A program made the translations under genes and the position numbers. A stretch of 64,000 bases of DNA from Fidelibacterota bacterium (GTDB taxonomy: Bacteria > Fidelibacterota > Marinisomatia > Marinisomatales > UBA1611), in NCBI GenBank assembly GCA_045568995.1, contig JBJKZY010000046.1:1575-65574 (forward strand), read 5' to 3'. Shown here one piece after another: positions 32,457 to 63,602 of this stretch. How positions within the stretch are numbered: position 1 is the first letter of the stretch; every line of letters starts with the position of its first letter. The notes beneath the pieces are model-generated. The model saw nothing but the letters and a program-made list of their open reading frames with translations. It had not been told where the DNA came from and searched no databases.

Positions 32457-33059
32457 ATGAAATTGTTTTTCCTACTTATTTTTATCCATAGTTTTTCCGT
32501 AGGCTTAGATCTTCGAGATATTAAAAGTCTGAAAAACTGGAATCTATTGAAAGATAATTCCATAAAAATAGAGTCGTGCATTTATAAAGGCTATCCCATT
32601 AGCAAAGCGGAAACAATACTTGAGCATGATATAAAAGATGTAGCAAGCATTATTAAAGACCTTGATAATTATCCAAAAATCTTTGAAAGAGTGACAAATA
32701 CTCATCGTCTTGGTGAAAATTTAGTCCATATTATTTTGGATATGCCTTTTCCATTTGATGGTCGAGATTATATAGTTGAATATGAAATAATAGAAAAAGT
32801 TGATTCCTGGGTGTTCTCGTTTTCTGCGCAAAAGAACAAGAGGAATCCAAAAATAGATGGCCACATTCGTCTTCCAAATGCTGCGGGTGTATGGATCTTA
32901 AATAAGACTTCAGAGAATAGTACAAAAGTTACCTATGCTTGGAATGGAGAGTTATTAGGAAGTTTCCCTGATTTTGGTTTAGAAAGAGCCTGGATCCAAC
33001 AAGGATCAGAGGTATTAGAGTGGCTTAATCAAGCACTTATAAATAAACAAAAAATATGA
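32457..33059 (+). CDS. Secreted START/SRPBCC-fold lipid-binding protein
   Basis: 200 aa; signal peptide MKLFFLLIFIHSFS; ..MPFPFDGRDYIVEY.. (START-type RD[FY]V motif); length typical of a single START domain. Confidence 0.65.
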   Translation: MKLFFLLIFIHSFSVGLDLRDIKSLKNWNLLKDNSIKIESCIYKGYPISKAETILEHDIKDVASIIKDLDNYPKIFERVTNTHRLGENLVHIILDMPFPFDGRDYIVEYEIIEKVDSWVFSFSAQKNKRNPKIDGHIRLPNAAGVWILNKTSENSTKVTYAWNGELLGSFPDFGLERAWIQQGSEVLEWLNQALINKQKI

Positions 33060-35093: not shown

Positions 35094-36161
35094 ATGAGAA
35101 GACAAATACTTATCATCATTATTACCCTTACAGCGGAGGCAGTATACAGTCAATGTGATAGCACTTTTACCTATTTTTCTGATCTGCCTAATAATGTTAC
35201 TATTTTAGTAGGAGATTCCTGCCTTTCCAATAGTGATCTTGCAGTCCTAGACAGTATTATATCACAAAATAATTTAGATTATAGCTCAGCTTTAGATATT
35301 GGTACACAGACATGGTTTAATGGTAGACTTCGATTTTTTGTAGGAGGAAACTATGGAAATAGTTCCGGAGTTAACGATACTATTTATTTACTTCCAGAAA
35401 ACTTTGGAGATCTTACTGGACTTGCTACACTTTACTTGGAATGGCATAGAATATCCGAACTTCCTGAGTCCTTCAGTAATTTGACAGGGCTAATGTCTTT
35501 ATATGTAAATAATAATATTCTAACTTCAATTGGAGACAGCATTGGAAACCTTACGAACCTATATTTTTTAGATCTTGGATATAATGAACTTCTTGAAATC
35601 CCTACATCTATCTGTAGCCTACAAAACCTAACCTACTTGTGGCTTTTCAATAATAATCTCCAAAACCTACCAGATTGCTTTTGCGATATGGGTTTAGATT
35701 GGATTAATGATGATAATGGAGGATATCCTTATTTCGCGATAGGAGCCAACCAGCTTTGTGATAATATAGCAAGCTGTATTGATAGCACTGAACATTTTAC
35801 ATTGAGCCTGGATCAATTTTATTATTCCTTTCCAGTTTATTCCCCTCAAGACTGCGACACAACAACTGCGGCTATTAGAGATCCTATTTTGCCCTACCAA
35901 TTCCAAGTTTCCCCCCCCTATCCCAATCCATTTAATCCAACAGTTCACCTAGATATATATATTCCCCATGATCGAAGAATGGATATCCGAGTATTTGATA
36001 TATTAGGGAATGAGGTTGATATTATTTCCAACCATTCAATCTATGAGTTTGGTCCTCACAGAATATATTGGACATCAAAAAATCATCCATCTGGAGTGTA
36101 TTATATCAGGTTTTCAGATGGTATAGATTCTCAAGTAAAAAAACTAATGTTGATAAAGTAG
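35094..36161 (+). CDS. Leucine-rich-repeat surface protein with T9SS-type C-terminal sorting domain
   Basis: 355 aa; LRRs LTGLATLYLEWHRISELPESFSNLTGLMSLYVNNNILTSIGDSIGNLTNLYFLDLGYNELLEIP..LQNLTYLWLFNNNLQNLP; C-terminus PPYPNPFNPTVHLDI..SGVYYIRFS..VKKLMLIK. Confidence 0.8.
   Translation: MRRQILIIIITLTAEAVYSQCDSTFTYFSDLPNNVTILVGDSCLSNSDLAVLDSIISQNNLDYSSALDIGTQTWFNGRLRFFVGGNYGNSSGVNDTIYLLPENFGDLTGLATLYLEWHRISELPESFSNLTGLMSLYVNNNILTSIGDSIGNLTNLYFLDLGYNELLEIPTSICSLQNLTYLWLFNNNLQNLPDCFCDMGLDWINDDNGGYPYFAIGANQLCDNIASCIDSTEHFTLSLDQFYYSFPVYSPQDCDTTTAAIRDPILPYQFQVSPPYPNPFNPTVHLDIYIPHDRRMDIRVFDILGNEVDIISNHSIYEFGPHRIYWTSKNHPSGVYYIRFSDGIDSQVKKLMLIK
35911..35918 (+). repeat. C8 homopolymer inside the LRR gene, immediately upstream of its T9SS sorting domain
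   Basis: GTT TCC CCC CCC TAT (V-S-P-P-Y). It is the longest G/C homopolymer I saw in the window; others are 6-7 nt. Confidence 0.95.
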
Positions 36162-37636: not shown

Positions 37637-38602
37637 TTGAAAATAAAGATCAGTGGAACGGGACTATATCTTCCACCAGATATAGAAACATCTAAAAATA
37701 TTGCACCATTAATTGGTAAATCTGAGAATTGGATTCTTGAAAAATCAGGAGTATCAGAGCGTCGTGTTTCAAAAATTGATGTAGATAAAATGGGTGCTAT
37801 AGCAGGTAAACAGGCGCTTGGAGAGCTAAAAAAACCTGACCTAATTATTAATGCATCTGGAGTCCCAAAGCAGACTATACCTGACACATCTACATTTTTT
37901 CAAAAAGAGATGGGGTTTGAAGGAATTCCCTCTTTTAGTATCCATGCTACCTGCCTATCTTTTATAACAGCCTTTCATACTGCCTCAACTCTAATCTCAT
38001 CTAATGCATATAAAAGAATATTAATTATCTCATCTGACAGAGGAACGCGGGGAAGAAATTTTGATGAGCCTGAAAGTTCATCTTTACTTGGAGATGGAGC
38101 AGCTGCAATTTTAGTAGAAGCTTCTACAAAACCAGATCAAAGTGAGTTAATATATTTTAATATGAAGACCTGGCCCAGTGGTGCAAATTTAACTGAAGTT
38201 AAAGGAGGTGGGACAAACAAACATCCACAAGATGATTCTACATCAGTCGCTGATAATTTATTCACAATGGACGGTCCTGCGATCTATAAGATTGCACGAA
38301 AACAAGTTTATAAAATGATGCTTAAAACTCTAAAAAATACTAAGTTAGAAAAAAAAGATATAAATTGGATTATCCCACACCAAGCATCAGGGAAAGCCGT
38401 AGAGGCTTACACTTCAGCTGGTGGTTTTGAAAAAGATAAAGTCATCAATATCGTTTCAAAATTTGGTAACTGTGTTGCTGCTTCTGTTCCAATGGCACTT
38501 TCAATAGCTGTACAAGATGGTAGGATAAAACGTGGAGATATAATTTTATTAATCGGAACTGGAGCTGGTTTATCAGCTGCCTGCGCATTAATTAAGTATT
38601 AA
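37637..38602 (+). CDS. KAS III (FabH)-like condensing enzyme, orphan
   Basis: 321 aa; TTG start. Cys-His-Asn triad motifs are intact: SIHATCLSFITA, IIPHQASGKAVE, FGNCVAASVPMAL. No ACP or other FAS/PKS genes in the locus. Confidence 0.8.
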   Translation: MKIKISGTGLYLPPDIETSKNIAPLIGKSENWILEKSGVSERRVSKIDVDKMGAIAGKQALGELKKPDLIINASGVPKQTIPDTSTFFQKEMGFEGIPSFSIHATCLSFITAFHTASTLISSNAYKRILIISSDRGTRGRNFDEPESSSLLGDGAAAILVEASTKPDQSELIYFNMKTWPSGANLTEVKGGGTNKHPQDDSTSVADNLFTMDGPAIYKIARKQVYKMMLKTLKNTKLEKKDINWIIPHQASGKAVEAYTSAGGFEKDKVINIVSKFGNCVAASVPMALSIAVQDGRIKRGDIILLIGTGAGLSAACALIKY

Positions 38603-39372
38603 TTTCTATTTTTTACTAAAAAATCTTTTGTGAAGATATCATCTTTCAGACCCATATCTGGTTTGTAAGACATTACAGACATTATAGTTTTATTACCGTT
38701 CTCTTTTTCCATTATCATTCTACCAGCGATACTAAAGCCATTTTTAATAATAAAATCAGATACGTATAGGGTTTTATCTTTATTAGACTCACTGATATAA
38801 TATTCAACCTTAGATATGCGCCATGTTTGGCTGTTTACCCATATTTTTCTTGAAAAATAAGAGCTAACATCTTTAGGCCAAGCCATAATGACCTTACATT
38901 GAACACCATCATAATATTCATTTCCGATGTTCATAAGACTATCGGATCCCACATCCCTATTCTCTAAATCTTCATAAGTAAAATCCGTATTTAAAAAAGT
39001 CTTAGATTTTTCTTTAGCTTTTACTTTTTTCGCTTTTTTTATTTTTGGTAAAGAGAACCACTGATCTGTTTTTCCATTGGCATAGACCCAACTTAAAAAG
39101 CCAGTCCCTTTTACAATCTTTGGCTTATGAAATCGTGCCAATGATTTTGATTTAAATATTCCAACATTGTAAAATTTTTCATAGCGCGTAAATTCTCTAA
39201 TTTTGGTTTTTATTTTACGTTTTTTCTTTCTTGTTATTTCGAGCTTTATTTCCGTGATAGAAGTTTCAGGTTTTGGATGGGAGGCCACATATGATAAAAT
39301 CTCTTCAGGTGTTAAATCTTGAGCAATAATAAAGCCACTAATTAAAAAGATTCTAATAATTTGAATTATCAT
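38599..39372 (-). CDS. LolA-like outer-membrane lipoprotein-sorting family protein (module B)
   Basis: 257 aa; signal peptide; family motif TFLNTDFTYEDLENR; paralog of 26705..27445. Confidence 0.75.
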   Translation of the reverse strand: MIIQIIRIFLISGFIIAQDLTPEEILSYVASHPKPETSITEIKLEITRKKKRKIKTKIREFTRYEKFYNVGIFKSKSLARFHKPKIVKGTGFLSWVYANGKTDQWFSLPKIKKAKKVKAKEKSKTFLNTDFTYEDLENRDVGSDSLMNIGNEYYDGVQCKVIMAWPKDVSSYFSRKIWVNSQTWRISKVEYYISESNKDKTLYVSDFIIKNGFSIAGRMIMEKENGNKTIMSVMSYKPDMGLKDDIFTKDFLVKNRN

Positions 39373-39674
39373 TTTTTTTCTTTGTAGACAAAAAAGATCG
39401 ATAATGGAGTAAACAATATACTTACAATAGAAATTGTTAAAAAATCTTGTTTATGTTTAAGCTCCAAATAACCTGCAATTTGCAAGCACAAGAAAACATA
39501 ACCAATAATAATAAAATCAAAATAAAATTGAAAAATATATGTTCCAAGTTCTTTTATTGTCATAGAGTATTTTAATGATAAGCCACCATCTGCACCCAAT
39601 ATGTACATAATACATAATAGAGTAACTAATATTAAGGCACCACTTAAATTCTTATCTTTATTGACTGATTTCAT
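39369..39674 (-). CDS. Small 3-TM membrane protein specific to module B
   Basis: 101 aa; ATGA overlaps on both sides (with the RND and LolA-like genes); three hydrophobic segments. Confidence 0.6.
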   Translation of the reverse strand: MKSVNKDKNLSGALILVTLLCIMYILGADGGLSLKYSMTIKELGTYIFQFYFDFIIIGYVFLCLQIAGYLELKHKQDFLTISIVSILFTPLSIFFVYKEKK

Positions 39675-41974
39675 TTAAATAAAAATTTTGGTTTTGTTAA
39701 ACTAGTTAATGCTGGAAGAGTTGCTAGTGCACCAAATAGACAAAAAGATATAGATCCCATCACCAAAGTTCCAAATATTTGCACAGGAACAAATACAGAA
39801 AAAAGAAGAGCTGAAAAACCAATAACAACCGATAAACCATTAAACAATATTCCTTTACCAGATATACGAAAGGTATTTGTAATCGCCTGATCAAGAGAAT
39901 CACCATTTCTAATATGGTCACGTAAGTGCCAGAGAAAATGAACCGTATAATCAACACCAACACCAACAAGAATACTCGTAAGAAGCATTGTCGTAACATC
40001 CAAGGGAATATTTAAATAACCCATTAATCCAAACATCATAATTACCGAAACTCCCATAGGTAGTGTTGCAAATAGTCCACCTACGAAAGACCGAAATACA
40101 ATGGCCATGATAATAAAGATAATAATTACAGAAACAAGGAGACTAATTAATTGTCCATTTACAATCATTCGACTCAAAACTCCAAGCAATGTGGCTCCTC
40201 CTGTCAATTCCATAGGTGCATCATCATAAAAATTAGCTTTAATAAATTGTTCAGTATCATCGACAATATCAGCTATTGTACTCGTTCTAACCTCTTTCAT
40301 TCTAAGCAGTATTTGCGTATAGTTAGGCTCTTCCATATCATCTAAAAGGACATCAAACTCATCATCATCACCTGCGATCGAATATAAAAACATGTATTGA
40401 GATATTAAATCTCTCTCTTTAGGGATCACGTCATACTCAGACTTTCCAGCATTAAACCCAGAGTGCATTTTTTTTATTACATCAACAATGGAATATGATT
40501 TAGTGACAATATTATATTTATTTTTGATATGATCAGTCAATTGTTCGATATTCTTTAATACTTTTGGATCAAAGATATCACCCTCAACAAGAATACTCAA
40601 TTGCGTTGATCCTCCAAATGCATTACTAATTTTACTATTCGCAATTTTGACGCTAGAGTTTGCAGGAAAATAACTGTCAGGATTTGTGTCAACTTTTAAA
40701 TCTTTTATCCCCATACTCAACCATAAACCACCAAATATCAAAATTGATAATACTTGAATATTATATTTTGTGAAAAATCTTCCCATAGACACTAAAAATG
40801 CATTTATATAAACCATACTTTTTTCTTTTGATAAATAAGTTGGTCGCGGTAACAAAATAAGTATCGATGGTATTAATAAAATACTAAGTACAAACCCTAC
40901 TAATATACCAAAAGAAACTAATACACCCATTTCTCTAGCGCGAGGTAAGAGATGTGATAATAATGATAAAAAGCTAACCATTGTAGTTAATCCAGCAAGC
41001 AAAATAGGAATCCCAACCTTTCGAATTGTCCTTTTTAATATTTGCTCTCTTTGACCGTTAGGGTCTACTTTAGAATATTCAAAATAATGGGAAATGATAT
41101 GAATCCCATAATTACTCGCAATAGCAACAAGCATAACAGGGATTAATGTTCCCACAAATGCTAAGGGTAAATCAAGCCATCCCATAATTCCAAATGTCCA
41201 TATTATAGATAGGACCACAACAAAAAAGGGCAGGAATACACCAGTCCAGCTCCTAAAAGATATCATAAGCAGAAGAATACCTAAACCCAATGCTATGGGA
41301 GTATATACCCTCATATCACGCTGCATACTTTCTACAACTGTTGCCCTAGTGATAGGCAAACTGGAAACATAAAATTCTTCTGGTCCATTATACCTATTCA
41401 CTAACTCAAATATTTTTTTTCTGAATTCAAATTCATCATATTCAAAAGAAGAATTTATTTGGCCTATAAAACACATTGTCTTAAAATCGATAGAAACTAG
41501 GTTACCCAAAGCTCCCGATTTTTCAATGCGATCTCTTAGTACAGAAAAACTGAGAGAATCACCAGGGATTTCCTCCAAAATAGATTCAATATTAAAGCCA
41601 TTTTGATCTGGTATGATTTGCTTTTGATTGAATATTGATGTCACTTTACTTATCAGACTAATTGATTCTAAAGAGTCATTAAACGAAGCTAATTTACTTA
41701 GAGTGCTTTTAGAGAATAGGCTATCGGATTCAACCCCAATAATTACGATATCACTACCTGAAAATAATTCATCAATTTTTTCCATTGACTTGACAATCGC
41801 ATGTTCTCTTGGCAATCCTGATCTTAATCCCGCATCCATCTCTAATTTAAAAATTTTCCAACCAAGTATTACTGTCAGCAATAATACTGCGGCTATGATG
41901 CTCCTAGGATAATGTGCATCAAATTCAAATAGTTTGTTTGAAATTCTTCTCAGATTCATAATATTACAGATCAT
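39671..41974 (-). CDS. COG1033-type RND/MMPL-family exporter (module B)
   Basis: 767 aa; same 2 x (loop + ~6 TM) architecture as 27442..29766. An alternative start MNLRRISNK at 41959 is possible. Confidence 0.85.
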   Translation of the reverse strand: MICNIMNLRRISNKLFEFDAHYPRSIIAAVLLLTVILGWKIFKLEMDAGLRSGLPREHAIVKSMEKIDELFSGSDIVIIGVESDSLFSKSTLSKLASFNDSLESISLISKVTSIFNQKQIIPDQNGFNIESILEEIPGDSLSFSVLRDRIEKSGALGNLVSIDFKTMCFIGQINSSFEYDEFEFRKKIFELVNRYNGPEEFYVSSLPITRATVVESMQRDMRVYTPIALGLGILLLMISFRSWTGVFLPFFVVVLSIIWTFGIMGWLDLPLAFVGTLIPVMLVAIASNYGIHIISHYFEYSKVDPNGQREQILKRTIRKVGIPILLAGLTTMVSFLSLLSHLLPRAREMGVLVSFGILVGFVLSILLIPSILILLPRPTYLSKEKSMVYINAFLVSMGRFFTKYNIQVLSILIFGGLWLSMGIKDLKVDTNPDSYFPANSSVKIANSKISNAFGGSTQLSILVEGDIFDPKVLKNIEQLTDHIKNKYNIVTKSYSIVDVIKKMHSGFNAGKSEYDVIPKERDLISQYMFLYSIAGDDDEFDVLLDDMEEPNYTQILLRMKEVRTSTIADIVDDTEQFIKANFYDDAPMELTGGATLLGVLSRMIVNGQLISLLVSVIIIFIIMAIVFRSFVGGLFATLPMGVSVIMMFGLMGYLNIPLDVTTMLLTSILVGVGVDYTVHFLWHLRDHIRNGDSLDQAITNTFRISGKGILFNGLSVVIGFSALLFSVFVPVQIFGTLVMGSISFCLFGALATLPALTSLTKPKFLFK

Positions 41975-46931: not shown

Positions 46932-48875
46932 ATGACAAAAATACTCTGGAGACCCAAAAATATTCACAGCACCCATATGATGAAATTCATGGATCGTATA
47001 AATAATGTTTATGATTTACATCTCAAGTCTTATCAAGACCTACACAATTGGTCCATTAAAAATATCCCTGATTTTTGGAAAGAGGTTTGGAATCAATCAG
47101 AAATAATTCATTCAAATACATACACAGATATAGTTGACGACGCGAATAAAATACCTGGTGCTAAATGGTTTTCAGGATCACGATTAAATTTCGCTGAAAA
47201 TTTATTACGCTATCGCAATGATCATATTGCAATCTATGCTAAAGCTGAGAACCTTCCATTGAGAAGTATTACATACAATGAACTCTTTAACAAGGTAGAA
47301 GCACTTGCACATTCATTGAAATCTTTAGGCATAAAAGAAGGTGATCGTGTTGCTGGCTTTATCCCTAATATTCCTGAAGCTGTGATCGCAATGCTTGCGA
47401 CAAGTGCAATCGGAGCCATCTGGAGTTCTGCCTCTCCGGATTTTGGTGTAAAGGGAGTATTAGACAGGTTCAAACAAATAGAACCAAAAATAGTTTTTGC
47501 ATCTGATGGCTATTACTATAATGGTAAAGAATTTGACTCTTTAGAAAAATTAAATAATATATTAAAAGATCTTCCTTCAGTTGAAAAAACTATAATCATA
47601 AATCAAATAAATAATCAAAAAAGTACTGGGCTTTCTTTTGATTTTGTTAATTTTGATGAATTTCTAAGTAAATCTCCAGACAAACTTCATTTTACTCAAC
47701 TTCCTTTTGATCATCCACTTTATATAATGTACTCTTCAGGGACAACCGGACTTCCAAAATCTATTGTCCACTCTTCAGGAGGTACACTTATCCAGCATTG
47801 GAAAGAATTACGCCTGCATTGCAATTTAAGCAAAGAGGATACGATTTTTTACTTTACAACATGTGGTTGGATGATGTGGAATTGGCTTATTTCTGCTTTG
47901 TCTATTGGATCCTCAATCGTTTTATTTGATGGTGGTCCCTTTTATCCAGATAATAAAAAATTATGGGAGATAGCAGAACAATTAAAAATTACTATTTTTG
48001 GAACAAGCGCAAAATATATTGACTCCTGTAAAGAATCTGGATTAAAACCAAAAGACGTATTCAATCTTTCAAAGCTAAAGACTATCCTTTCCACGGGATC
48101 TCCATTGTCAAACGAAAATTTTAGATATGTTTATGAAAATATAAAATCTAATGTCTTGTTAGGATCAATTTCAGGAGGTACAGATATTATATCTTGCTTT
48201 GCCTTGGCAAATCCAATTTTACCTGTTGAAGAAGGCGAATTACAATCTATTGGGCTAGGAATGGATGTTCATGCTTTTGATGAAAATGGGCAACAATTTC
48301 TCAATCAGAAAGGAGAATTGGTTTGCACTTCAATATTTCCTTCAATGCCAATTTATTTCTGGAACGATCCTGATCACCAAAAATATCAGAATGCTTATTT
48401 CAATAAATTTGAAAAAGTTTGGTATCATGGGGATTATATCAGAATATCAAAAAATGGTAGTATGAAAATTTATGGCAGAAGCGATGCCACACTTAATCCT
48501 GGAGGAGTCAGAATTGGGACAGCAGAAATTTATCGAGTCATTGAAAAAATAGATGGGATATCAGATAGCCTTGTTGTTGGCCAATCATGGAAAGGGGATC
48601 AACGAATTATACTATTTTTAAAAATGAATAAAAATCATGTTTTTAATAAAAGAATAGTAGAAGAAGTAAAACAAATGATCAAAAACAGCTGTTCACCTAG
48701 ACATATCCCCGAGATCATATTAGAAACAAACGGAATACCATATACGATGAATGGAAAAAAAATAGAAATAGCTGTAAAAGAGATTATTGATGGCAAAAAA
48801 GTTGATAATATTGATTCTATTCAGAACCCTGAAGTACTTAACTATTACAAAAATATTTCTGAGCTAAGTGCTTAA
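46932..48875 (+). CDS. aacS: Acetoacetyl-CoA synthetase
   Basis: 647 aa; N-terminal LWRPKN..KFM..SYQDLHNWSI..DFWKEVW typical of AacS; AMP-binding motif YSSGTTGLPKSIVHS. Confidence 0.8.
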   Translation: MTKILWRPKNIHSTHMMKFMDRINNVYDLHLKSYQDLHNWSIKNIPDFWKEVWNQSEIIHSNTYTDIVDDANKIPGAKWFSGSRLNFAENLLRYRNDHIAIYAKAENLPLRSITYNELFNKVEALAHSLKSLGIKEGDRVAGFIPNIPEAVIAMLATSAIGAIWSSASPDFGVKGVLDRFKQIEPKIVFASDGYYYNGKEFDSLEKLNNILKDLPSVEKTIIINQINNQKSTGLSFDFVNFDEFLSKSPDKLHFTQLPFDHPLYIMYSSGTTGLPKSIVHSSGGTLIQHWKELRLHCNLSKEDTIFYFTTCGWMMWNWLISALSIGSSIVLFDGGPFYPDNKKLWEIAEQLKITIFGTSAKYIDSCKESGLKPKDVFNLSKLKTILSTGSPLSNENFRYVYENIKSNVLLGSISGGTDIISCFALANPILPVEEGELQSIGLGMDVHAFDENGQQFLNQKGELVCTSIFPSMPIYFWNDPDHQKYQNAYFNKFEKVWYHGDYIRISKNGSMKIYGRSDATLNPGGVRIGTAEIYRVIEKIDGISDSLVVGQSWKGDQRIILFLKMNKNHVFNKRIVEEVKQMIKNSCSPRHIPEIILETNGIPYTMNGKKIEIAVKEIIDGKKVDNIDSIQNPEVLNYYKNISELSA

Positions 48876-49873
48876 TCTAAACTATATAATTTACCTAATA
48901 AATCTGCCACTCTGTTTGAATAACCCCACTCATTATCATACCAATTAAGTGTCTTTACAAAATTACCATCGATCACGCGTGTAAAGGGTGCATCGAAAAT
49001 AGATGAATGTGGGTTTCCAATAATATCTGTTGAAACTACAGGCATGGTCGAATATTCCAAAACATTTTTTAAAGTCCCAGATTCTGCAGAGCTGTATACA
49101 GCATCATTTATCTGATCTACTGTGACATCTTTTTCTAGACGAACGTTGAAGTCTACTACAGATCCATCTGGTACAGGAACACGCATTGCAATGCCATCAA
49201 GCTTCCCATTTAATTCAGGTAAAACTTTTCCAACAGCTCTTGCAGCACCTGTTGTTGTTGGTATAACATTCTCAGCAGCAGCTCTACTTCTTCTCCAATC
49301 GGAGTGAGGAACATCAGCAAGTCTTTGGTCATTGGTATATGCATGAATAGTATTGATCACGCCAAGTTCAATTCCAAATGCATCATTTAAAACTTTTGCC
49401 ATAGGAGCTAAACAATTTGTAGTACAGGAAGCATTCGACACAATTTTATGCTCAGGCAATAAACCATCATCATTAACACCTAAAACAACTGTGTAGTCTA
49501 TTTCATCTTTTGCGGGAACTGTAAGAACTACTCTTTTCGCTCCAGCCTTGAGATGATTCTCAAGCTGCGATTTTTGACGAAAAATTCCTGTTGATTCAAT
49601 AACTATATCTACTCCCATATCTCCCCATGGCAGAGAAGCTGGATCTCGCTCCGCTAAGAGCTTAACAGATTGACTATTTGTTTTTAATATATCCCCATCG
49701 AGGGTCACCTCTCCTGGGAATCGACCCATTACTGTATCATATTTAAGTAGATAGGTGAGAGCCTCTTTATCAAAAATATCATTGATTGCGACAAGATTAA
49801 CATCTTCTTTAGAGTCCAAAATTCGAAAAACTGAACGTCCTATTCTTCCAAAACCATTTATAGCTATATTCAT
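48872..49873 (-). CDS. gap: Glyceraldehyde-3-phosphate dehydrogenase, canonical type I
   Basis: 333 aa; INGFGRIGR, SNASCTTNCLAP (catalytic Cys), TIHAYTNDQ, RRSRAAAENVIP, TGAARAVGKVLPEL, MRVPVP, WYDNEWGYS. Confidence 0.95.
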   Translation of the reverse strand: MNIAINGFGRIGRSVFRILDSKEDVNLVAINDIFDKEALTYLLKYDTVMGRFPGEVTLDGDILKTNSQSVKLLAERDPASLPWGDMGVDIVIESTGIFRQKSQLENHLKAGAKRVVLTVPAKDEIDYTVVLGVNDDGLLPEHKIVSNASCTTNCLAPMAKVLNDAFGIELGVINTIHAYTNDQRLADVPHSDWRRSRAAAENVIPTTTGAARAVGKVLPELNGKLDGIAMRVPVPDGSVVDFNVRLEKDVTVDQINDAVYSSAESGTLKNVLEYSTMPVVSTDIIGNPHSSIFDAPFTRVIDGNFVKTLNWYDNEWGYSNRVADLLGKLYSLD

Positions 49874-50889
49874 GATGTCTCCTCTAATTTTGCATATGCA
49901 TCCACTACTTCAAGAATTCTTTTTGAAAATCCCCACCCATTATCATACCAGCAAAGTGTTTTTAATAAAGCGTCCTTAGTAATCATCGTTGCTTTTTCAT
50001 CAAAAACCATCGTCTCCTCTCTACCACTAACATCACTTGAGACTATTGGATCAGAAGTATAACCAACAATTCCATTTAATTTATTTTCCGAGAATTCTTT
50101 AATGGCTTTGTTTGCCTGTTCAACTGTTGGTGTTCGCTCTAGCTCTGTAGTTAAATCCACACAAGAACCATTTGGAACAGGCACATTAAAAGCAATGCCA
50201 TCAATCTTATCTTTATACTCAGGCATAATTTTCTCCACAAGGTCTGGAGACTGCGTACTATTTGGGATAATATTTTCAACAGCTGATCTACTTCTTCTTA
50301 AATCTGCCCCGGCTACATCTGCCAATGGCTGATCTGCAGTGTAAGCATGAACCGTGGTCATCATTGCCCTCTTTAATCCAAATGCCTCATCAAGCATTTT
50401 AACCATAAGAGCAAGCACCTGGGTCGTAGAGGATGTAGTAGAAATAATTTTATCCGACAATAAAATACTTGATTCATTTAAACCTGGAATCACATACCTA
50501 TCAATTTCATTTTTTGGATTCCTTGTAAGGAAAACTCTCTTTGCTCCTGATTCAAGATGGGGTACTAGTTTTTCTCGAGTTAAAAATCTACCCGTAGCAT
50601 CAATCACTACATCTGCCTGCAAGGCATCCCAAGGAATAGTACCAGGATCTCCGCCACTAATCACCCTTACACGCTGATCTTTTACCTTTAGATAGTTTCC
50701 ATCTAATTCAACAGGATCTTCCATAGCACCATGGATAGAATCTCTTGCTAATAAATATTGAAGGGTTTCTGCGGATCCAAAGTCACTTATTGCTACAAAA
50801 TTATAATTTGGGTTATCGTATCCTAGCCTAAAAAGATTTCTTCCAATTCTTCCAAAACCATACAATGCTATGTTTATTTTTTTTGTCAT
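49870..50889 (-). CDS. GAPDH paralog lacking the catalytic cysteine
   Basis: 339 aa; YGFGRIGR retained, but SNASCTTNCLAP is replaced by STTSSTTQVLAL (Cys->Ser, codon TCT at 50428..50430). MRVP becomes FNVP (Arg->Asn) and STGAAKAVGKV becomes STQSPDLVEKI. TVHAYTADQ and RRSRSAVENIIP are retained. ATGA overlap with canonical gap. Confidence 0.85.
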   Translation of the reverse strand: MTKKINIALYGFGRIGRNLFRLGYDNPNYNFVAISDFGSAETLQYLLARDSIHGAMEDPVELDGNYLKVKDQRVRVISGGDPGTIPWDALQADVVIDATGRFLTREKLVPHLESGAKRVFLTRNPKNEIDRYVIPGLNESSILLSDKIISTTSSTTQVLALMVKMLDEAFGLKRAMMTTVHAYTADQPLADVAGADLRRSRSAVENIIPNSTQSPDLVEKIMPEYKDKIDGIAFNVPVPNGSCVDLTTELERTPTVEQANKAIKEFSENKLNGIVGYTSDPIVSSDVSGREETMVFDEKATMITKDALLKTLCWYDNGWGFSKRILEVVDAYAKLEETS

Positions 50890-52289: not shown

Positions 52290-52556
52290 TTATTCTTCTT
52301 CGGCTAAGGCATCCATTTTTTCAAGAAAATCACTCATTTTTTGAATATTCTTATCACCACTTATTTTGGATGTTTGAGGATCAGTGTGCCATTCTTTTTT
52401 TGCATAAAGAATTTTTGAAACTAATATTACAGTATATAATAGCAGTAAAATAATATATCCTGTAACATGAGCAAAGTTATCTCGATCTAGAAATATCAAT
52501 AAGAAAAACAGTATTACCGGCATCCATTTTATTAATATTTGAAGAACTCGAAACAT
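52290..52556 (-). CDS. Hypothetical 2-TM membrane protein
   Basis: 88 aa; two hydrophobic helices, acidic C-terminus. Confidence 0.45.
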   Translation of the reverse strand: MFRVLQILIKWMPVILFFLLIFLDRDNFAHVTGYIILLLLYTVILVSKILYAKKEWHTDPQTSKISGDKNIQKMSDFLEKMDALAEEE

Positions 52557-52560
52557 ATAA

Positions 52561-53337
52561 CTAGTCTAAGACTTGCTCAATAAATTTCAACATTTTTTTT
52601 TGCTTGGATAGATAACCTAATCTTGTTTCGACATTTAGATATCTAACATTTCTTCTTAACGCTTCCCATGATAGACTTCCATCATCATTTTCTGGTAATT
52701 TATTTTGTAATACTACATTAAAAGGGCCAGAACTTAATTTTTCATAATCATTTGCATCTGTGCATATAATAAAGTCCCTTGGGTTTTCAGTTTTTTTAAT
52801 GGATACCTTTTGACTTTTACTTTTTTCTTTGTGAACGTTATAACCACGAAAATTATTATGCAATGAAATGAGGTAACCAGATTCTGCAGGCATAAGGATA
52901 TCCAAGAAATCCTCTCTTTCTCTATCTAAGATATCCAAAGCCTTTTTTAAGTTGCCTGGAGGCCAATCTGGTTTAAATTTTCTCAAGGCATGGTAAGAAC
53001 CTTTTCTAGAAAAAATTCTATTTGGGTCTATTATGGTTGATTGGAAAGGTACCTCACGAGTTTCACTATCAATAAAAAATGCTATCCCTTGATATTTTTT
53101 TATATGGTACTCCAAAGCCATCTTAGCAGTTTGTTCATCTCCATGCAACCATATGTAACGATTAGATGAATTACCATTTGAAATAATATCAAATTTTGCT
53201 TTCGCAAAAGAAATATAGGAATGTGGAAAAGAAACATTCTTAGTTTCTCCTGCAAAAACAAAAGAGAGAATATGTATGATTATAGTTTTATTTAAGAAGG
53301 ATTGCCTTCTGAGTATCATAAGATTGCTTTGATTCAA
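52561..53337 (-). CDS. Hypothetical protein with M14-carboxypeptidase-like metal motifs (tentative)
   Basis: 258 aa; WLHGDEQTA (HxxE), IIDPNRIFS (resembles DxNRNF), LISLHNN (third His). Order and spacing resemble a minimal M14/MpaA-like fold. The 5' end overlaps the upstream gene. Confidence 0.35.
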   Translation of the reverse strand: MNQSNLMILRRQSFLNKTIIIHILSFVFAGETKNVSFPHSYISFAKAKFDIISNGNSSNRYIWLHGDEQTAKMALEYHIKKYQGIAFFIDSETREVPFQSTIIDPNRIFSRKGSYHALRKFKPDWPPGNLKKALDILDREREDFLDILMPAESGYLISLHNNFRGYNVHKEKSKSQKVSIKKTENPRDFIICTDANDYEKLSSGPFNVVLQNKLPENDDGSLSWEALRRNVRYLNVETRLGYLSKQKKMLKFIEQVLD

Positions 53338-54826
53338 CTTTTATAAAATAAATTCCGCTCGGTAATTTTCGAGCATCCCATATGAAAACATGGTTCCCAA
53401 TTTCAAGAAATGTATTCCATTTTTCAACCAATTTACCCTGCAAATCATGAACTGTTAAATCAATAAAACTAGGATCATTAATAGAAATTGAAATATTAGT
53501 AATAGGGTTAAATGGATTAGGATAATTAGGACTCAAATGAAAGCTACTCAGTGGAATTACTGGATCAATTTTAGTAAAATCAATATCATGACAACTATCT
53601 AAATCCCAAGCATTCAAAGGGTATACTTCAAATGAGTCTGGAGGGCATTCTTCAAAATAATTATGATGTGCATAAATTTGGTCCAAAATCAATGAATCTG
53701 CTGGAAAATTTTTATACAGATCCTCTCCTATATCTGCATAATTATCATAGAAAATATTTCCAATTGTGACAGAACCTCCAAGGATAGGCCAAGAAAGAGA
53801 GTCCACATAAATACCACCACCGAAATAACAGATACAATCACAATCCCCTTGGACAGTATTATCAAAAATTTCATTTCCAAATATATGAGGATAAGATGTG
53901 CCTATAATTGCAATTCCGCCTCCGCCTCCACCACAGGAACCTGCGATGTTGTTATGTATAATATTACGATCAATGGTAGGACTAGAATCTTCAATCAATA
54001 TTCCTCCACCATAATTTTGGCTATATCCATTTTGAATTTCAAACCCTAACAATATAGATGATTGATCCTGCCCATTATTTATTGTGACAACGCTACCTTG
54101 CCCTCCTCCATCCAGCACTACAGGTCCTGAAGTATTATCTTCATATCCACTATAAGGAAGAGCAACCAAAGAAATATTTTTATCTAAAAAATTAATATGT
54201 TCATAATAAACCCCTGGGTCTACTAATATTATATCACCATCGCTTGCATTCTCTATTGCATTTTGAATTACTATAAAATCTTCACTCACTCTCAAAACAT
54301 TAGGCCCATTATTTGCTCTAAAGTCTAGAATCAAATTTATGAAATAACTATAATCCTCAGGATTTTCTGGATCCAAAGTGGTTATGTTAAATTGATAAAT
54401 CAATTCGCCTTGTCTATCCAAAAAATATGTACTTCGCTGTACTGCTTCATAATCTTCCCATACAGGATAGCCTTCTTCTTCTATATCCTCTACCCATGGT
54501 AATATATTTTGATCAATCATGCCATCCAGACTACTATTATATGCATCTTTTCCTACCCCAACCATATTCACATCTTCTATGCCAATGGCAAGTAAGTCAT
54601 TATAAACTAGGTTTAGAAAATCGAACCGACTTCTACAAGCGCTTCAATATTCATGTCCAAAAAATATAATACTGATTTCACCTAAAAAATCGTCTGGCCC
54701 AATTACCTGTCCATAGAATTCGGAATTTGGATTTAAGTCTTCTAATTCAAAGTTGCTTTGAGAAAAAAGAGATTTAACGAAAAAAAATATAAGGAGGGGG
54801 AAAAACTTACTCATCCTGATCTTCAT
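53288..54826 (-). CDS. Candidate selenoprotein: signal peptide + thioredoxin-fold U-x-x-C domain + right-handed beta-helix + T9SS-type C-terminal sorting domain (in-frame TGA at 54644..54646)
   Basis: Track ORFs 54644..54826 and 53288..54571 are in the same frame. My translation across the gap reads ..GEISIIFFGHEY-TGA-SACRSRFDFLNLVYNDLLAIGIEDVNMVGVGKDAY.. with no other stop. Beta-helix repeats (NNIAGSCGGGGGGIAI, YFGGGIYV). C-terminus YPNPFNPITNISISI..SGIYFIKVES..QKAILLK. The start may be 54814 (MSKFFPLL). Confidence 0.6.
54614..54635 (-). promoter_or_regulatory. SECIS-like hairpin 9 nt downstream of the in-frame UGA
   Basis: RNA UAGAAGUCGGUUCGAUUUUCUA: stem U-A, A-U, G-C, A-U, A-U, G.U, (bulged U), U-A, C-G; apical loop GGUUC beginning 16 nt after the UGA. 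Confidence 0.45.
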
Positions 54827-57480: not shown

Positions 57481-58617
57481 TTAAATAATTGATCGCAATG
57501 CATTCATCAAAGAATCTATATCTTTTTGATCATTATAGATATGGATAGATAATCGTATAAATTTTTCTTTATTCCATTCAAAAATAGGAATTTCAATTTT
57601 ATAATTTTCCCAAAGTATATTTTTAATCTTATTATTAGTATTTTTTGGCAGAGGGAATGAAATCATTTGCCCTAAGAAATCATCGCCTCTAGATATGGGA
57701 TCAGTTCGTAAAACTTTCTGAAATTGATCCCCTGTATTCAGAATTAGTTTTTTACTATCCTCTTGAAAACTTTCTATATCATTTTTAAAAAAATTAATTA
57801 CCTTAGGAACCGTTAAAAATGCTGACATATCTCGGGTCCCTTGCCATTGAAAATCTTGCAAAAACTCAGAACGTTCTGGGTCATCTCCATCTTTACCCCA
57901 GCTATATATAACAGGCTTAATCCATTTTTGGTGTTCCTTTTTGACAAATAAAAAAGAGGCTCCTTTGGGACCACACATCCATTTATGCAAAGCCCCTGTA
58001 TAAAAGTCACACCCAAGTTTATGAATATTTAAATCAATATGACCTGGTACATGAGCACCGTCCACTATAGTAATTATTTTCCTTTTCTTTGCATAATCAA
58101 TTATGTCTTGTATTGGAAAGATTAAACCTGTTGGACTAGTAATTTGAGAAAGGAAAATGACTTTTGTTTTTGATGATATCTTGTTATAAATATCCTCAAA
58201 GAACTTATCTTTTGATTCTAAAGGCAATGTAATATGTGCATTTTTAATATATACCTTAGACTTTTTACCCCAGGCATTCCAAGCTCTAACCAAAGCTCCA
58301 TATTCATGATCTGTCATAAGAACTTCATCTCCAGGCTTTAAGTCTAAATTATAAATGATATTGGATATAGCTGTGGTGGGGTTTGGGAAAAACAAAACTT
58401 CATCTTGATCGCATCCTAAAAATGCAGCCAAAGATTCCCTAGATTCTTTCAAAGCGGGATATAATTCTTCCGTTAAAAACTGTACTGGTTGTTTTTCCAA
58501 TTTAACTTGCCAATTTTGATAATCTTCAAAGATTTCTCTAGGACAAGCACCAAAGGATCCGTGATTTAAATAGGTAATACCTTCTTCAAGTAAAAAAGAG
58601 TTTTTATTTCCATTCAT
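57481..58617 (-). CDS. Class V aminotransferase-fold PLP enzyme (isopenicillin-N-epimerase / cysteine desulfurase-like)
   Basis: 378 aa; ITYLNHGSFGACP N-terminus, DGAHVPGH, GALHKWMCGPKGASFLFV (PLP Lys). Confidence 0.8.
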   Translation of the reverse strand: MNGNKNSFLLEEGITYLNHGSFGACPREIFEDYQNWQVKLEKQPVQFLTEELYPALKESRESLAAFLGCDQDEVLFFPNPTTAISNIIYNLDLKPGDEVLMTDHEYGALVRAWNAWGKKSKVYIKNAHITLPLESKDKFFEDIYNKISSKTKVIFLSQITSPTGLIFPIQDIIDYAKKRKIITIVDGAHVPGHIDLNIHKLGCDFYTGALHKWMCGPKGASFLFVKKEHQKWIKPVIYSWGKDGDDPERSEFLQDFQWQGTRDMSAFLTVPKVINFFKNDIESFQEDSKKLILNTGDQFQKVLRTDPISRGDDFLGQMISFPLPKNTNNKIKNILWENYKIEIPIFEWNKEKFIRLSIHIYNDQKDIDSLMNALRSII

Positions 58618-60218: not shown

Positions 60219-63200
60219 TTACTTTAAGAAAATAACCTTTTGATTTTTTACCATTCCGCCATAGCGAAGCTGAGCAAAATATATACCGGAAGCATGGTGC
60301 TGTGCATACCATTTCACTTTGTATGTCCCAGGAATTAATTCCTGCTTCAATAGAGTATCAACTACCCTACCCTTAACATCATAAATTAATAGAAGAACAT
60401 TTTGTGAACCTTCTATCGATAAAGGAATATCAAATTTAAATGTAGCAATAGGATTAAATGGGTTGGGATAGGCAGGAAACAAAGATAATTTTTTAGGTAG
60501 AGGTTCATGATTTAGCATATAGTCGCCTTTTTGTATACCATTTTTATTTTTAAATGTATACAATAATTTTCCTTGCGAAATAGAGCTGATATCTATCTTA
60601 ATCGTGTCATTGACCAATAATCCTGATCGAGCAAATTCAATTATAGAATAGCCTCTTTCTGGAAAATGGTTATTTAAATACAACTTGTTTTCTTTGGATG
60701 CCGGTAAGTGAAAACTGGGAGTATTTCCTCCCTTATCATAAACAAATTGAATTTGACCACATAACGCGCTGTCGTTTATTGGAATCGACAGAAATTTATC
60801 TGTCTGAAAAATATTCACAAGACTTCCATAAGATGCAGAATCATCAATGATTTCTCCAAAGCTACTCTGATACCATGACCATATTTGTACAAAAGCCATA
60901 CCATCATCTATATTAAATTTTGAATCTGGTAATGATATTAGATGGGGAACTGTTCCTTCAAAAGGGCCAAGTTCATAATTAAAGTTTTTCGCCTCCCAAT
61001 TTTCTACTAAATCCCACATGTCATTGTATGATATCTTCCCATCAAAATCATAATCTCCTAAAATCGGTGTCCGGTAAGTATATGCAATATCAACCGTTGT
61101 AAGACTTGACTGATCCTCTAAGTATGGGAAATCAATTGAAATCGAATCATAACTCGCAAAAGGAGGTTCAAGAGTTATTTGTAGATAATCATCTGTTAGT
61201 ATTGAGGAAAACTTAACTGTATCCATTGCATACGAAGAGACGGTAAAAGCAACTGAATCTAATTTTTCATTAAACCGGAAAATAATAGGGTTACTTTCCA
61301 TTAATACAATAAATGAATCTATCGGTACTGAAATTGAATCAATACTTGGAGGTAGCATATCATTCAACTCCAATTGTCCTGTGAAATTATTACTAGGGAA
61401 AGGTATCCCAGCATCATCATATAGGAAGAGACTGTCCGAAGGACTTAAGGATATTTTCTCTCCTCCTTCCGGTGTACCATTATATTCCAGATTTATCCGA
61501 ATACTGTCTTCTCCACCAATTAAAAAATTACTATTTGTATTGGATACACTTGTAACAAAACATGAATCAACATTACTACCATCAGCATCAATAAACACCT
61601 GTACATTATTAACTTCTAAAGGCGATGATGCCTCTTCGTCTCCAAAAATTTTATCATTGAAAATTAAATCAACATAGGAGTTATCTTCTGCTAATTGGTA
61701 AGTAAGAATCGCAGGAGGAATATTATCAACTGTTTCAAAATATAAGTCTAAGTTAAGTAACGATTCGTTACCCTTCCCATCTCCAAACAGACCACTAAAA
61801 TTAAAATAAACTGTTTGATCACTTAATAAAGCTATATTTGGAACAATCTTTATCGTAGTGTTGTCGTCCTCTAATTCAATATCAAATGGGATGTCAATCC
61901 CAAGACTATCACCATATTTCAGAGTGAAAAATTCCTCTAGATCTATGTTACTAAGTAGTTCATTTGTTTCCACATTATAGAGAGGCTCTGATAATGAAAT
62001 CTCTATTTCTGAATCTAATGAAATACTTTCAGATCCATCCGGAAAGTTTGTATCCACAACCGTTGGTGGTGAACTATCTGATAAACTTTGAGTAATGGAT
62101 GCACTTCTTTTCATGCCCATCCCAAATGAGTTAAATATAGATGCATTGTTTTGCGTCCTAATCGTAATTAACTCTTGTCCTGTAGATTCACCAATAACTG
62201 TAATATAAAACCGAATTGTATCTTCACCGCTAGAAAGTGGATTCCCATCATTATCCGCTATATATTCCAAATTTATGCCAGTTGCGGTACCACCTGTATT
62301 TTGATCAAAAATCATTTCAAAATCAGAAGGATCAACTGCTCCTTCTGCTGTTGCATTTGTATACATATTTTCACTAAAACGTATCTCTAAATAACTATCA
62401 TCTTCCGCAATATCGGAAGAAACAATCTCAGGAAGAGTTCCCACAGAAAGTGCATAATTTCCTAGGACTCCACTGTATCCATCTACAATTAAGTAATAAG
62501 TCCCTGCCTGTAACGTTATGCTATCAATAATACTAGCGTAGTAAGCGGGTTCAACACTTGAAATAGGACAAAAAAGACTATCTCCGTCATCAAATTCTGT
62601 AATAGAAACAGGATTCCCGCAAGTGTCTTTAACGGCAAGTATGGTATCAAAATCAGTTAAAGGGTCACATGTATCAATGAAAAGACTTTTTTGTGTAGGC
62701 AAATTAATTTGGTAAGAATAATCATTCCCATTTGGATAATTTTGAAAGCTCCAATCATCTCCCATATTATTTTCTAGGGCAGATAGATGGTAAAATGGGA
62801 AGCTAGTTATCACCGTATCCACGCATGACCCTAAGCAAGCACCCTCATAAACATCTGCATCCCAATATCCTTCGCCTCCAATAACTAGAGTACCATTATT
62901 TCCATTACCTGTTAGATCTGATATGGTTGCATCATTTCCATCATTGAAACTCCAATAAGCCATCAAAAAACTAGCTCCTGCAGTTGGGGGTATACACATT
63001 GTACTTTGTATTTGGTTTGCTTCAAGAGAGTAATTCCAAAGTCGAACTTCATCAATAGATCCACTAAAATATCCATCCAATTCTCCAATATCTACGTTTA
63101 CACTTCTACCAATTTTCATATCCATGTCTGAAATATAGTTCCAATTTATAAGACCTCCTTGTGTAGCAAAGCTATCTTGTTCATATCCGTTTTTAAAAAT

Positions 63201-63602
63201 TTTTGCAATCCCCGTTTCAGAATCATATGTCCCTGCAATATGAGTCCAGGTATCACTATTTACTGTAACTCCAGGCCAGAGCTCAAGGCCATCTTCAAAA
63301 ATTCCATTTTGTCCACTTCCAACACTTACAATAAATCGAAACATATCTTCATAATATATAATAGAAAAACCAGATTCTTCATCTATCCCATTAAATCTTA
63401 AATATTGTATAATAGGGTCGAAATTTTCATAATTTACCTGATCTGGGTTTACCCAACATTCAATTGTCATAGCATTCTCTGGTTGAATAGTGCTCGCGCT
63501 CTGAATATTTACATAATCATTTTGTTGAAATGTAAAACTTGAATCCTGTGCAAAAACGAATCCAATTAGAAGAGATGTAATCCAAAAATGTCTATTCAAC
63601 AC
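60219..63602 (-). CDS. Large surface protein: LamG/ConA-like domain, PPC-like domain, Ig-like repeats, dockerin-like Ca loop, T9SS-type C-terminal sorting domain
   Basis: 1127 aa; signal peptide; GSIDEVRLWNYSLEANQI (LamG_3-type), AGTYYLIVDGYSGVLGNYALSV (pre-peptidase C-terminal type), DYDFDGKISYND (DxDxDGxIxxxD). C-terminus YPNPFNPIATFKFDI..SGIYFAQLRY..QKVIFLK. Confidence 0.8.
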   Translation of the reverse strand: MLNRHFWITSLLIGFVFAQDSSFTFQQNDYVNIQSASTIQPENAMTIECWVNPDQVNYENFDPIIQYLRFNGIDEESGFSIIYYEDMFRFIVSVGSGQNGIFEDGLELWPGVTVNSDTWTHIAGTYDSETGIAKIFKNGYEQDSFATQGGLINWNYISDMDMKIGRSVNVDIGELDGYFSGSIDEVRLWNYSLEANQIQSTMCIPPTAGASFLMAYWSFNDGNDATISDLTGNGNNGTLVIGGEGYWDADVYEGACLGSCVDTVITSFPFYHLSALENNMGDDWSFQNYPNGNDYSYQINLPTQKSLFIDTCDPLTDFDTILAVKDTCGNPVSITEFDDGDSLFCPISSVEPAYYASIIDSITLQAGTYYLIVDGYSGVLGNYALSVGTLPEIVSSDIAEDDSYLEIRFSENMYTNATAEGAVDPSDFEMIFDQNTGGTATGINLEYIADNDGNPLSSGEDTIRFYITVIGESTGQELITIRTQNNASIFNSFGMGMKRSASITQSLSDSSPPTVVDTNFPDGSESISLDSEIEISLSEPLYNVETNELLSNIDLEEFFTLKYGDSLGIDIPFDIELEDDNTTIKIVPNIALLSDQTVYFNFSGLFGDGKGNESLLNLDLYFETVDNIPPAILTYQLAEDNSYVDLIFNDKIFGDEEASSPLEVNNVQVFIDADGSNVDSCFVTSVSNTNSNFLIGGEDSIRINLEYNGTPEGGEKISLSPSDSLFLYDDAGIPFPSNNFTGQLELNDMLPPSIDSISVPIDSFIVLMESNPIIFRFNEKLDSVAFTVSSYAMDTVKFSSILTDDYLQITLEPPFASYDSISIDFPYLEDQSSLTTVDIAYTYRTPILGDYDFDGKISYNDMWDLVENWEAKNFNYELGPFEGTVPHLISLPDSKFNIDDGMAFVQIWSWYQSSFGEIIDDSASYGSLVNIFQTDKFLSIPINDSALCGQIQFVYDKGGNTPSFHLPASKENKLYLNNHFPERGYSIIEFARSGLLVNDTIKIDISSISQGKLLYTFKNKNGIQKGDYMLNHEPLPKKLSLFPAYPNPFNPIATFKFDIPLSIEGSQNVLLLIYDVKGRVVDTLLKQELIPGTYKVKWYAQHHASGIYFAQLRYGGMVKNQKVIFLK

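Follow-up and report, generated by a model that had tools for sequence, protein, structure and literature searches.

The closest described relatives of the gene analysed here are the 'Prx-like 2' sequences that Zhang & Gladyshev reported in 2008 using Global Ocean Sampling (GOS) data, a marine-enriched family of 99 selenocysteine (Sec) sequences with a UxxC motif, a faint resemblance to selenoprotein P in the N-terminal domain of the latter and, at that time, not one sequenced genome with a strong homolog (PMC2398784). Fusions to a 'distant Secretin_N' and to an 'Unknown_2' domain were reported for this family, and DsbA-like and DsbG-like UxxC selenoproteins were predicted in the same work (PMC2398784). 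A 2005 study of the Sargasso Sea contained a 'Prx-like' UxxC family, possibly the same subfamily. Prx-like 2 corresponds to a curated NCBIfam model, NF053656.1, titled 'TUGYCR motif thioredoxin fold (seleno)protein'. Here, we examined a stretch of 64,000 nucleotides from contig JBJKZY010000046.1 (hereafter the window) and found on its minus strand a gene, split by an in-frame TGA, that we read as encoding, in a marine bacterium of the Marinimicrobia (SAR406), one exported selenoprotein of 512 residues with the UGA decoded as Sec, a reading to which we assign a probability of about 0.88.

Two further groups of described proteins frame the comparison. The thiol-disulfide oxidoreductases ResA, CcmG (DsbE), TlpA and StoA share with the window protein the strand-CxxC-helix geometry and act outside the cytoplasm, but they have 13-20% identity to its redox domain, use Cys rather than Sec, and are periplasmic, membrane-anchored and reduced by CcdA/DsbD. 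Periplasmic formate dehydrogenases and the [NiFeSe] hydrogenase are Sec proteins that are exported after their synthesis in the cytoplasm. These proteins, like the predicted Sec-containing relatives of DsbA and DsbG, end in the periplasm, whereas the window protein bears an outer-membrane sorting signal, that of the type IX secretion system (T9SS).

RESULTS

A single reading frame interrupted by one TGA codon

Translation of the minus strand from 54826 to 53288 gave one frame of 513 codons that ends in TAA and has its only internal stop, a TGA, at codon 61. In the list of open reading frames (ORFs), this frame appears as a 60-residue ORF (54644..54826) and an ORF of 427 residues that starts at a GTG (53288..54571), and the preliminary description, which took the two as one gene with a single TGA, was correct in this respect. 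It was likewise right that TGA is an ordinary stop elsewhere in the window: among the 46 ORFs that, counted from stop to stop, are 200 codons or longer, 23 end in TAA, 16 in TGA and 7 in TAG, and the TGA at 24337 is a genuine stop that has a complete thiolase on one side and FadB on the other. After screening all in-frame TGAs of the window for at least 45 open codons on either side, we found no other plausible Sec-type TGA but only gene junctions and antisense frames.

Conservation of the TGA column among marine Marinimicrobia

We searched the protein database with the window protein carrying C in place of U and obtained ~76 clusters of closely related proteins (45-99% identity), whose source names are Candidatus Marinimicrobia or Neomarinimicrobiota (SAR406) and whose samples are marine. 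All clusters are 425-453 residues long and cover just 83-86% of the query, indicating that every one of these database homologs has been cut at the TGA by gene callers. At the DNA level, a scan for orthologs in which each GTDB species was represented by a single genome yielded 32 loci, and tblastn with the same query aligned residues 1-512 through the junction in about 20 of them. The column of codon 61 held TGA in 26 of 26 sequences (the window and 25 loci from different GTDB species representatives, with 43-85% protein identity to the window protein), and TAA, TAG, TGC or TGT in none of these 26. Around it, the motif FFGHE[YT]-U-xxCR[SND]RF[GD]FLN was kept, with synonymous variation all round. 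The TGA thus recurs far more than chance allows.

Using the mean entropy per site over 24 orthologs, we compared the codon positions on the two sides of the TGA. The 36 codons upstream gave values of 0.54, 0.34 and 1.18 for positions 1, 2 and 3, and the stretch of 25 codons from the TGA to the GTG annotated as the start gave 0.68, 0.35 and 1.17. Since this periodicity is present on each side, the same frame is under purifying selection both before and after the TGA, a pattern that is incompatible with a sequencing error, with a pseudogene or with two genes that are independent. The relatives hence do not functionally end at the TGA, given that the 25 codons past it are as variable at the third position as the codons upstream.

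That the gene is a pseudogene, or that the TGA codon stems from faulty sequencing or assembly, is accordingly extremely improbable as an explanation. Independent assemblies of 25 species share this very TGA, as do a contig of 99% identity assembled from a different sample and the Sanger reads of 2008, and the purifying selection on either side refutes decay for the lineage as a whole. Two individual copies do fit such an explanation: in the single-cell genome AG-470-O07 (L022:6166-6231), a run of T just past the hairpin described below is shorter by 1 nt, which causes a frameshift, and the protein P0142 looks frameshifted in a similar way. The L022 copy may be in decay, or its homopolymer may have been misread in sequencing, and it is to this copy only that the explanation could apply.

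Cysteine, serine and apparently mistranslated homologs

An exhaustive HMMER search with the residues after the TGA as the query returned 103 cluster representatives, 17 of which span the Sec column. Cys occupies that column in two, P0181 (CGTC, encoded by TGC) and P0169 (CGIC), while a 'W' is printed in the remaining 15, which are distant members of the family. We rejected the latter as a real Trp, as the DNA of 2 of the 15, P0175 (L034:541-1320) and P0163 (L035:26-688), was checked and shows an in-frame TGA where the protein is printed as ..FT-W-GTC... Probably, the source pipelines translated TGA as Trp in low-GC contigs by using the genetic code 4 model for gene calling. This artefact is systematic, and it masks selenoproteins as 'WxxC' proteins in public protein sets.

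The only full-length ortholog in the protein database is P0032, from the Tahi Moana vent metagenome (L033:694-2271), whose cluster comprises 42 member sequences. It was considered as a further Cys homolog and rejected, because it has Ser at both active-site columns (TCA at the column of U, AGT at that of the resolving Cys); to judge from its codons, P0032 is a redox-dead SxxS variant.

With homologs that align through the junction and carry either TGA (25 species-level genomes) or Cys (two proteins), as the preliminary description had anticipated, and with a TGA that independent assemblies and the 2008 reads share, the prediction is supported by comparative evidence at the standard that the field usually applies to selenoproteins. 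On these grounds, we suggest that the in-frame TGA almost certainly encodes Sec.

Fold and family of the redox domain

Against NF053656.1, the window protein with U changed to C scored 132.6 bits (cut-off 100; E-value 9.3e-39) over about 145 of the 146 model positions (2-145). The Cys homologs P0181 and P0169 scored above the cut-off too (121 and 152 bits), as did the SxxS ortholog P0032. The window protein differs from the model in its motif, Y-U-S-A-C-R instead of T-U-G-Y-C-R, and in its extent, since the model spans the redox domain only, whereas the window protein adds a beta-helix and a T9SS tail.

Orthologs of the window gene were already present in the GOS Dataset S1, which places them under the heading 'Prx-like 2' (PMC2398784). 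JCVI_READ_1050161 reads ..FFGHEYUGACRSRFGFLNTVHEDL.. there, JCVI_READ_1093016149783 continues into the beta-helix with ..GPGVIRVKDDYVTIQAAIENAVNGDIILVEPGTY.., and short members with terminal NYPNPFNP.. tails are included as well (PMC2398784). The published account, by contrast, names neither an organism nor a signal peptide or a route of secretion, and it leaves the beta-helix and the PNPFNP tails undescribed (PMC2398784). Hence, the selenoprotein as such is already known, having been listed as a family since 2008 and given a curated NCBIfam model: of the earlier proposal of a candidate selenoprotein, the Sec reading is supported, but it is not a discovery.

We used AlphaFold models of full-length P0032, on which the TGA column could be placed, and of the window protein's own beta-helix segment. 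In the P0032 model, which has a mean predicted local distance difference test (pLDDT) of 86.6, the U-equivalent S64 lies between a strand at 54-60 and a helix at 65-83. A fold search of the PDB with the redox domain returned ResA, CcmG/DsbE and StoA as the best matches (template-modelling score, TM, ~0.77 on the target; E-value ~3e-6). The modeled structure thus shows the UxxC motif at the start of helix 1, directly after strand 1 of a ResA/TlpA-like thioredoxin fold, and the TGA at the N-terminal redox position, where it had been placed from the sequence alone. Membership in the peroxiredoxins (AhpC/TSA, PF00578) was considered and rejected: no peroxiredoxin family was among the Pfam and NCBIfam matches at E-values up to 1, and UxxC is the thioredoxin type of motif, not the peroxidatic T/S-x-x-C(U). 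'Prx-like' is a name of historical origin.

Domain architecture and predicted export

The redox domain follows a putative N-terminal signal peptide and is succeeded by a right-handed parallel beta-helix and a T9SS type A C-terminal sorting domain (Table 1). Orthologs keep the K/R n-region and the hydrophobic core of the signal peptide, and the c-region looks typical by eye. The sorting domain scored 41.7 bits against TIGR04183 (cut-off 23) and 38.9 bits against PF18962, Por_Secre_tail (cut-off 27). For the beta-helix, the Pfam profile Beta_helix reached 25.2 bits, just below its cut-off of 25.9, and NosD_copper_fam matched weakly, whereas the AlphaFold model of the window segment had a pLDDT of 88.2. 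Both domain calls of the preliminary description therefore hold, with that one profile score marginally short.

Six cysteines of the beta-helix are invariant (C298, C329, C331, C333, C394 and C412, with a motif GxCDCxCYFGGG). P0032, which has lost the hairpin downstream of the active site, retains the beta-helix, these six cysteines and the T9SS tail; as the cysteines are kept even in an SxxS ortholog, the beta-helix has a role that is independent of the redox site. Its PDB matches were weak, namely pectin methylesterases and lyases of polysaccharide lyase family 6 (E-value at best 1.5e-3, TM ~0.4), and an assignment as a lyase or esterase was dropped, these matches being merely generic carbohydrate-active beta-helices.

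Secretion tails recur in the wider redoxin family: the PNPFN motif is present in 17 of 102 representatives and dockerin-like repeats in another 10, and P0175 represents a minimal architecture of signal peptide, U-redoxin and tail. Cargo of the T9SS must first cross the inner membrane through the general secretory (Sec) system and thus needs a signal peptide. Because only the upstream ORF has a candidate for one, the T9SS tail is sensible only in the joined protein.

This bears on whether the TGA could be a true stop, with a secreted 60-residue peptide and a separate 427-residue protein from the GTG at 54571. Every gene caller does end the ORF there, and most orthologs have some downstream start codon. 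Yet the downstream product would start inside strand 2, lacking strand 1, the active site and helix 1, and would bear a T9SS tail without a signal peptide. Moreover, the 25 codons from the TGA to the GTG are under coding constraint in the same frame, with CRSRFGFLN nearly invariant, the stop is always TGA and never TAA or TAG (n = 26), and the Cys homologs read on through the same column. We therefore consider a true stop highly unlikely.

In our search of the literature, we found no account of a T9SS-sorted selenoprotein or of the secretion of this protein, and the 2008 study is silent on signal peptides (PMC2398784), which agrees with the earlier remark that no such T9SS cargo had been described. 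We thus found no description of an architecture that joins a signal peptide to a Sec redoxin, a beta-helix and a T9SS sorting domain.

The window encodes three further proteins with T9SS type A sorting domains, at 33056-35092 (plus strand, 678 residues), 35094-36161 (plus strand, a leucine-rich-repeat protein of 355 residues) and 60219-63602 (minus strand, 1127 residues), bringing the T9SS cargo candidates within the 64 kb to four, the selenoprotein included, which would lend indirect support to a T9SS in the host.

Candidate SECIS hairpin and decoding of the UGA

Using RNAalifold on the 26-sequence alignment, we obtained a consensus hairpin as a candidate bacterial selenocysteine insertion sequence (SECIS). 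It begins 11 nt past the UGA and has a stem of 5 bp that can be extended to 8 bp. The pairing was satisfied in 89% of cells, compared to 36-62% in controls with slid partners, and compensatory changes occurred at two pairs (four sequences have A-U in place of G-C, and three have U-A in place of C-G). P0032, the one ortholog without the TGA, has no such hairpin any more, which favours the Sec reading. The GGUU of the loop is invariant, and its Arg codon is NGG in 26 of 26 sequences and CGG in 18 of 26, although in the window, with 34% G+C, CGG makes up only 3% and AGG 16% of the Arg codons (NGG 19% in total). The consensus for bacterial SECIS (bSECIS) elements has a loop of 3-9 nt with a G in its first two positions and a stem of 4-16 bp, at 16-37 nt from the UGA, with a minimum free energy (MFE) of at most -7.5 kcal/mol (PMC13188914). 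With a loop of GUU or CGGUUCG, a stem of 5-8 bp and a spacing of 15-17 nt, the hairpin fits in its geometry and loop. The MFE structure of the single window sequence, with the UGA in a stem and a GUAG loop, was dropped, as the orthologs do not conserve it.

Several observations weigh against the reading as an exported selenoprotein. The hairpin is energetically weak, with -3.8 kcal/mol for the window copy and a mean of -5.7, and -7.5 is reached in only 4 of 26 sequences. Part of the loop conservation is at the protein level, since the loop encodes Arg-Phe, which is kept in a Cys homolog. Rfam at gathering thresholds had no match in the whole window, and permissive E-values around the TGA gave chance microRNA and long non-coding RNA matches only, so that Rfam lends the SECIS no support. 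We therefore rate the SECIS evidence as moderate: of the bacterial SECIS that the preliminary description expected after the TGA, a conserved hairpin with a GGUU loop and fitting geometry was found, but not the energy or the Rfam match. Concerning the genes for Sec insertion, an ARAGORN scan of the window and of the 32 related loci (~350 kb) gave no tRNA-Sec, tblastn with approximate sequences of SelD and SelB of Escherichia coli gave no relevant match in the same DNA, and no selA was seen there either; a weak match in one related locus (L029) proved to be an unrelated GTPase region. Three SAR406 single-cell genomes were classified as 'orphan SelD', that is, SelD was present while other Sec components and selenoprotein genes were not found (Peng et al. 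2016). On the side of export, the signal peptide call relies on inspection by eye, and no T9SS core genes were seen within the 64-kb window. We also know of no reductant for a surface-exposed UxxC; a reductant system of the ResA type, located at the inner membrane, would be out of reach for a protein that the T9SS has carried outside.

Some of these observations would fit a readthrough of the UGA as a standard amino acid, either by a near-cognate Trp or Cys tRNA or by a lineage-specific suppressor, instead of Sec insertion via SelA/SelB. Such readthrough agrees with the 'orphan SelD' class, in which the SAR406 single-cell genomes are listed without SelA, SelB and selenoprotein genes, with the lack of Sec machinery in the window and related loci, and with a hairpin weaker than the bSECIS energy threshold. 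The single-cell genomes are, however, incomplete and yet carry SelD, and since in addition the gene is always mis-called, the simplest reading is that the Sec trait was missed in the SAR406 survey. Furthermore, the column is that of the catalytic Cys, which some homologs have there, TGA ends 16 of the 46 long ORFs as an ordinary stop, the position and GGUU loop of the hairpin match SelB-type elements, and the family is curated as a (seleno)protein for which Sec was predicted earlier by the standard criteria of the field (PMC2398784). Overall, we regard readthrough as a standard amino acid as unlikely, and decoding as Sec remains our preferred reading.

Gene neighbourhood

Table 1. Features of the predicted selenoprotein gene and its immediate neighbours (window coordinates).
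Feature	Coordinates	Strand	Remarks
Complete gene, predicted selenoprotein	53288..54826	-	512 residues including one Sec, plus TAA stop
Alternative start of this gene	54814	-	second ATG
Putative N-terminal Sec-type signal peptide (residues 1 to ~22)	54761..54826	-	MKIRMSKFFPLLIFFFVKSLFS, followed by QSNF; cleavage site judged by eye
Thioredoxin-fold redox domain (residues 24-168)	54323..54757	-	NF053656, redoxin_TUGYCR, equal to 'Prx-like 2'
In-frame TGA, inferred Sec codon (U61, motif U-S-A-C)	54644..54646	-	context ..IIFFGHEY, TGA, SACRSRFDFLN..
Candidate bacterial SECIS hairpin	54616..54634	-	RNAalifold consensus, 26-sequence alignment
Hairpin stem	54633..54629 paired with 54621..54617	-	
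Hairpin loop	54628..54622	-	CGGUUCG
Right-handed parallel beta-helix (residues ~176-430)	53537..54301	-	AlphaFold and weak Pfam match
T9SS type A C-terminal sorting domain (residues 435-509)	53300..53524	-	TIGR04183, PF18962
Upstream small ORF, ~33 residues	54807..54908	-	one hydrophobic helix and acidic tail, ..VVFVVGSLLLALWYRMNEDQDE
258-residue protein	52561-53337	-	motif ..WLHGDEQTA..; adjoins the selenoprotein gene's end or overlaps it; 27 loci
88-residue membrane protein	52290-52556	-	position kept in 26 loci

The order of small hydrophobic ORF, selenoprotein gene, 258-residue protein and 88-residue membrane protein is kept among the related loci, and both downstream genes are present in all loci that have the TGA site. 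By tblastn, the small ORF lies directly upstream in 21 loci at 50-100% identity, and as the two genes, in different frames, overlap at the selenoprotein start codon, translational coupling is possible. No family could be assigned to the small ORF or to the 258- and 88-residue neighbours, the downstream pair being without a significant Pfam or NCBIfam match. The two downstream genes may form an operon with the selenoprotein gene.

Four genes upstream, a class V aminotransferase of the cysteine desulfurase-like kind (57481-58617, minus strand) is syntenic in 17 loci; its scores are far too low for SufS (110 bits, cut-off 475) and for the selenocysteine lyase SclA (76 bits, cut-off 525). Cysteine desulfurase-like genes have been described as adjoining orphan selD genes (Peng et al. 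2016), and no selD was found near this aminotransferase in the window. Two tandem paralogs of glyceraldehyde-3-phosphate dehydrogenase (48872-50889, minus strand) are syntenic in 17 related loci as well. Farther away, an arylsulfotransferase of the ASST type (29804-31261, minus strand) adjoins a sulfotransferase (31371-32453, plus strand), and near this pair are two HAE3/RND (resistance-nodulation-division) transporters, each paired with a LolA-like gene (26705-29766 and 38599-41974). The rest of the window holds housekeeping genes of an aerobic heterotroph, such as those for haem synthesis, beta-oxidation, glycolysis and tryptophan dioxygenase.

DISCUSSION

Taken together, these data suggest the following sequence of events for the window protein. 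The ribosome would read the UGA at codon 61 as Sec, with the short hairpin 11 nt downstream presenting its GGUU loop to SelB. The N-terminal signal peptide would then carry the protein over the inner membrane, upon which the type A C-terminal domain would pass it to the T9SS, to be either released or anchored at the surface. There, outside the cytoplasm, the selenol/thiol pair may perform thiol-disulfide or peroxide chemistry, and the beta-helix between the redox and sorting domains could serve as a stalk or as a ligand-binding module.

The basic classification as a selenoprotein of Prx-like 2 / NF053656 is unchanged by the findings on secretion tails. What we add to the known family are its assignment to Marinimicrobia and its recurrent T9SS or dockerin-like export signals, neither of which we found discussed anywhere in the literature. 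An abundant marine selenoprotein family that consisted of anonymous reads in 2008 is now assigned to Marinimicrobia, and as this selenoprotein family belongs to the phylum, Marinimicrobia would use Sec. For annotation, the consequence is that practically all public copies of the gene wrongly appear as a truncated 'hypothetical protein'.

We further propose, tentatively and at somewhat less than even odds, that SAR406/Marinimicrobia put a Sec redox centre outside the cell, in the form of a T9SS-sorted, beta-helix-borne UxxC enzyme that is exposed on the surface or released into oxic seawater. If true, the enzyme would be the first selenoenzyme of any bacterium with a demonstrated action outside the periplasm, and the status of the phylum as one with 'orphan SelD, no selenoproteins' would be overturned; a less likely extension would be decoding of the UGA in this lineage by a route other than canonical SelA/SelB. 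As many members of the family carry T9SS or dockerin-like tails, selenium redox chemistry may act on or outside the surface of ocean bacteria, which, if true, would bear on the demand for trace selenium and on extracellular redox processes in seawater.

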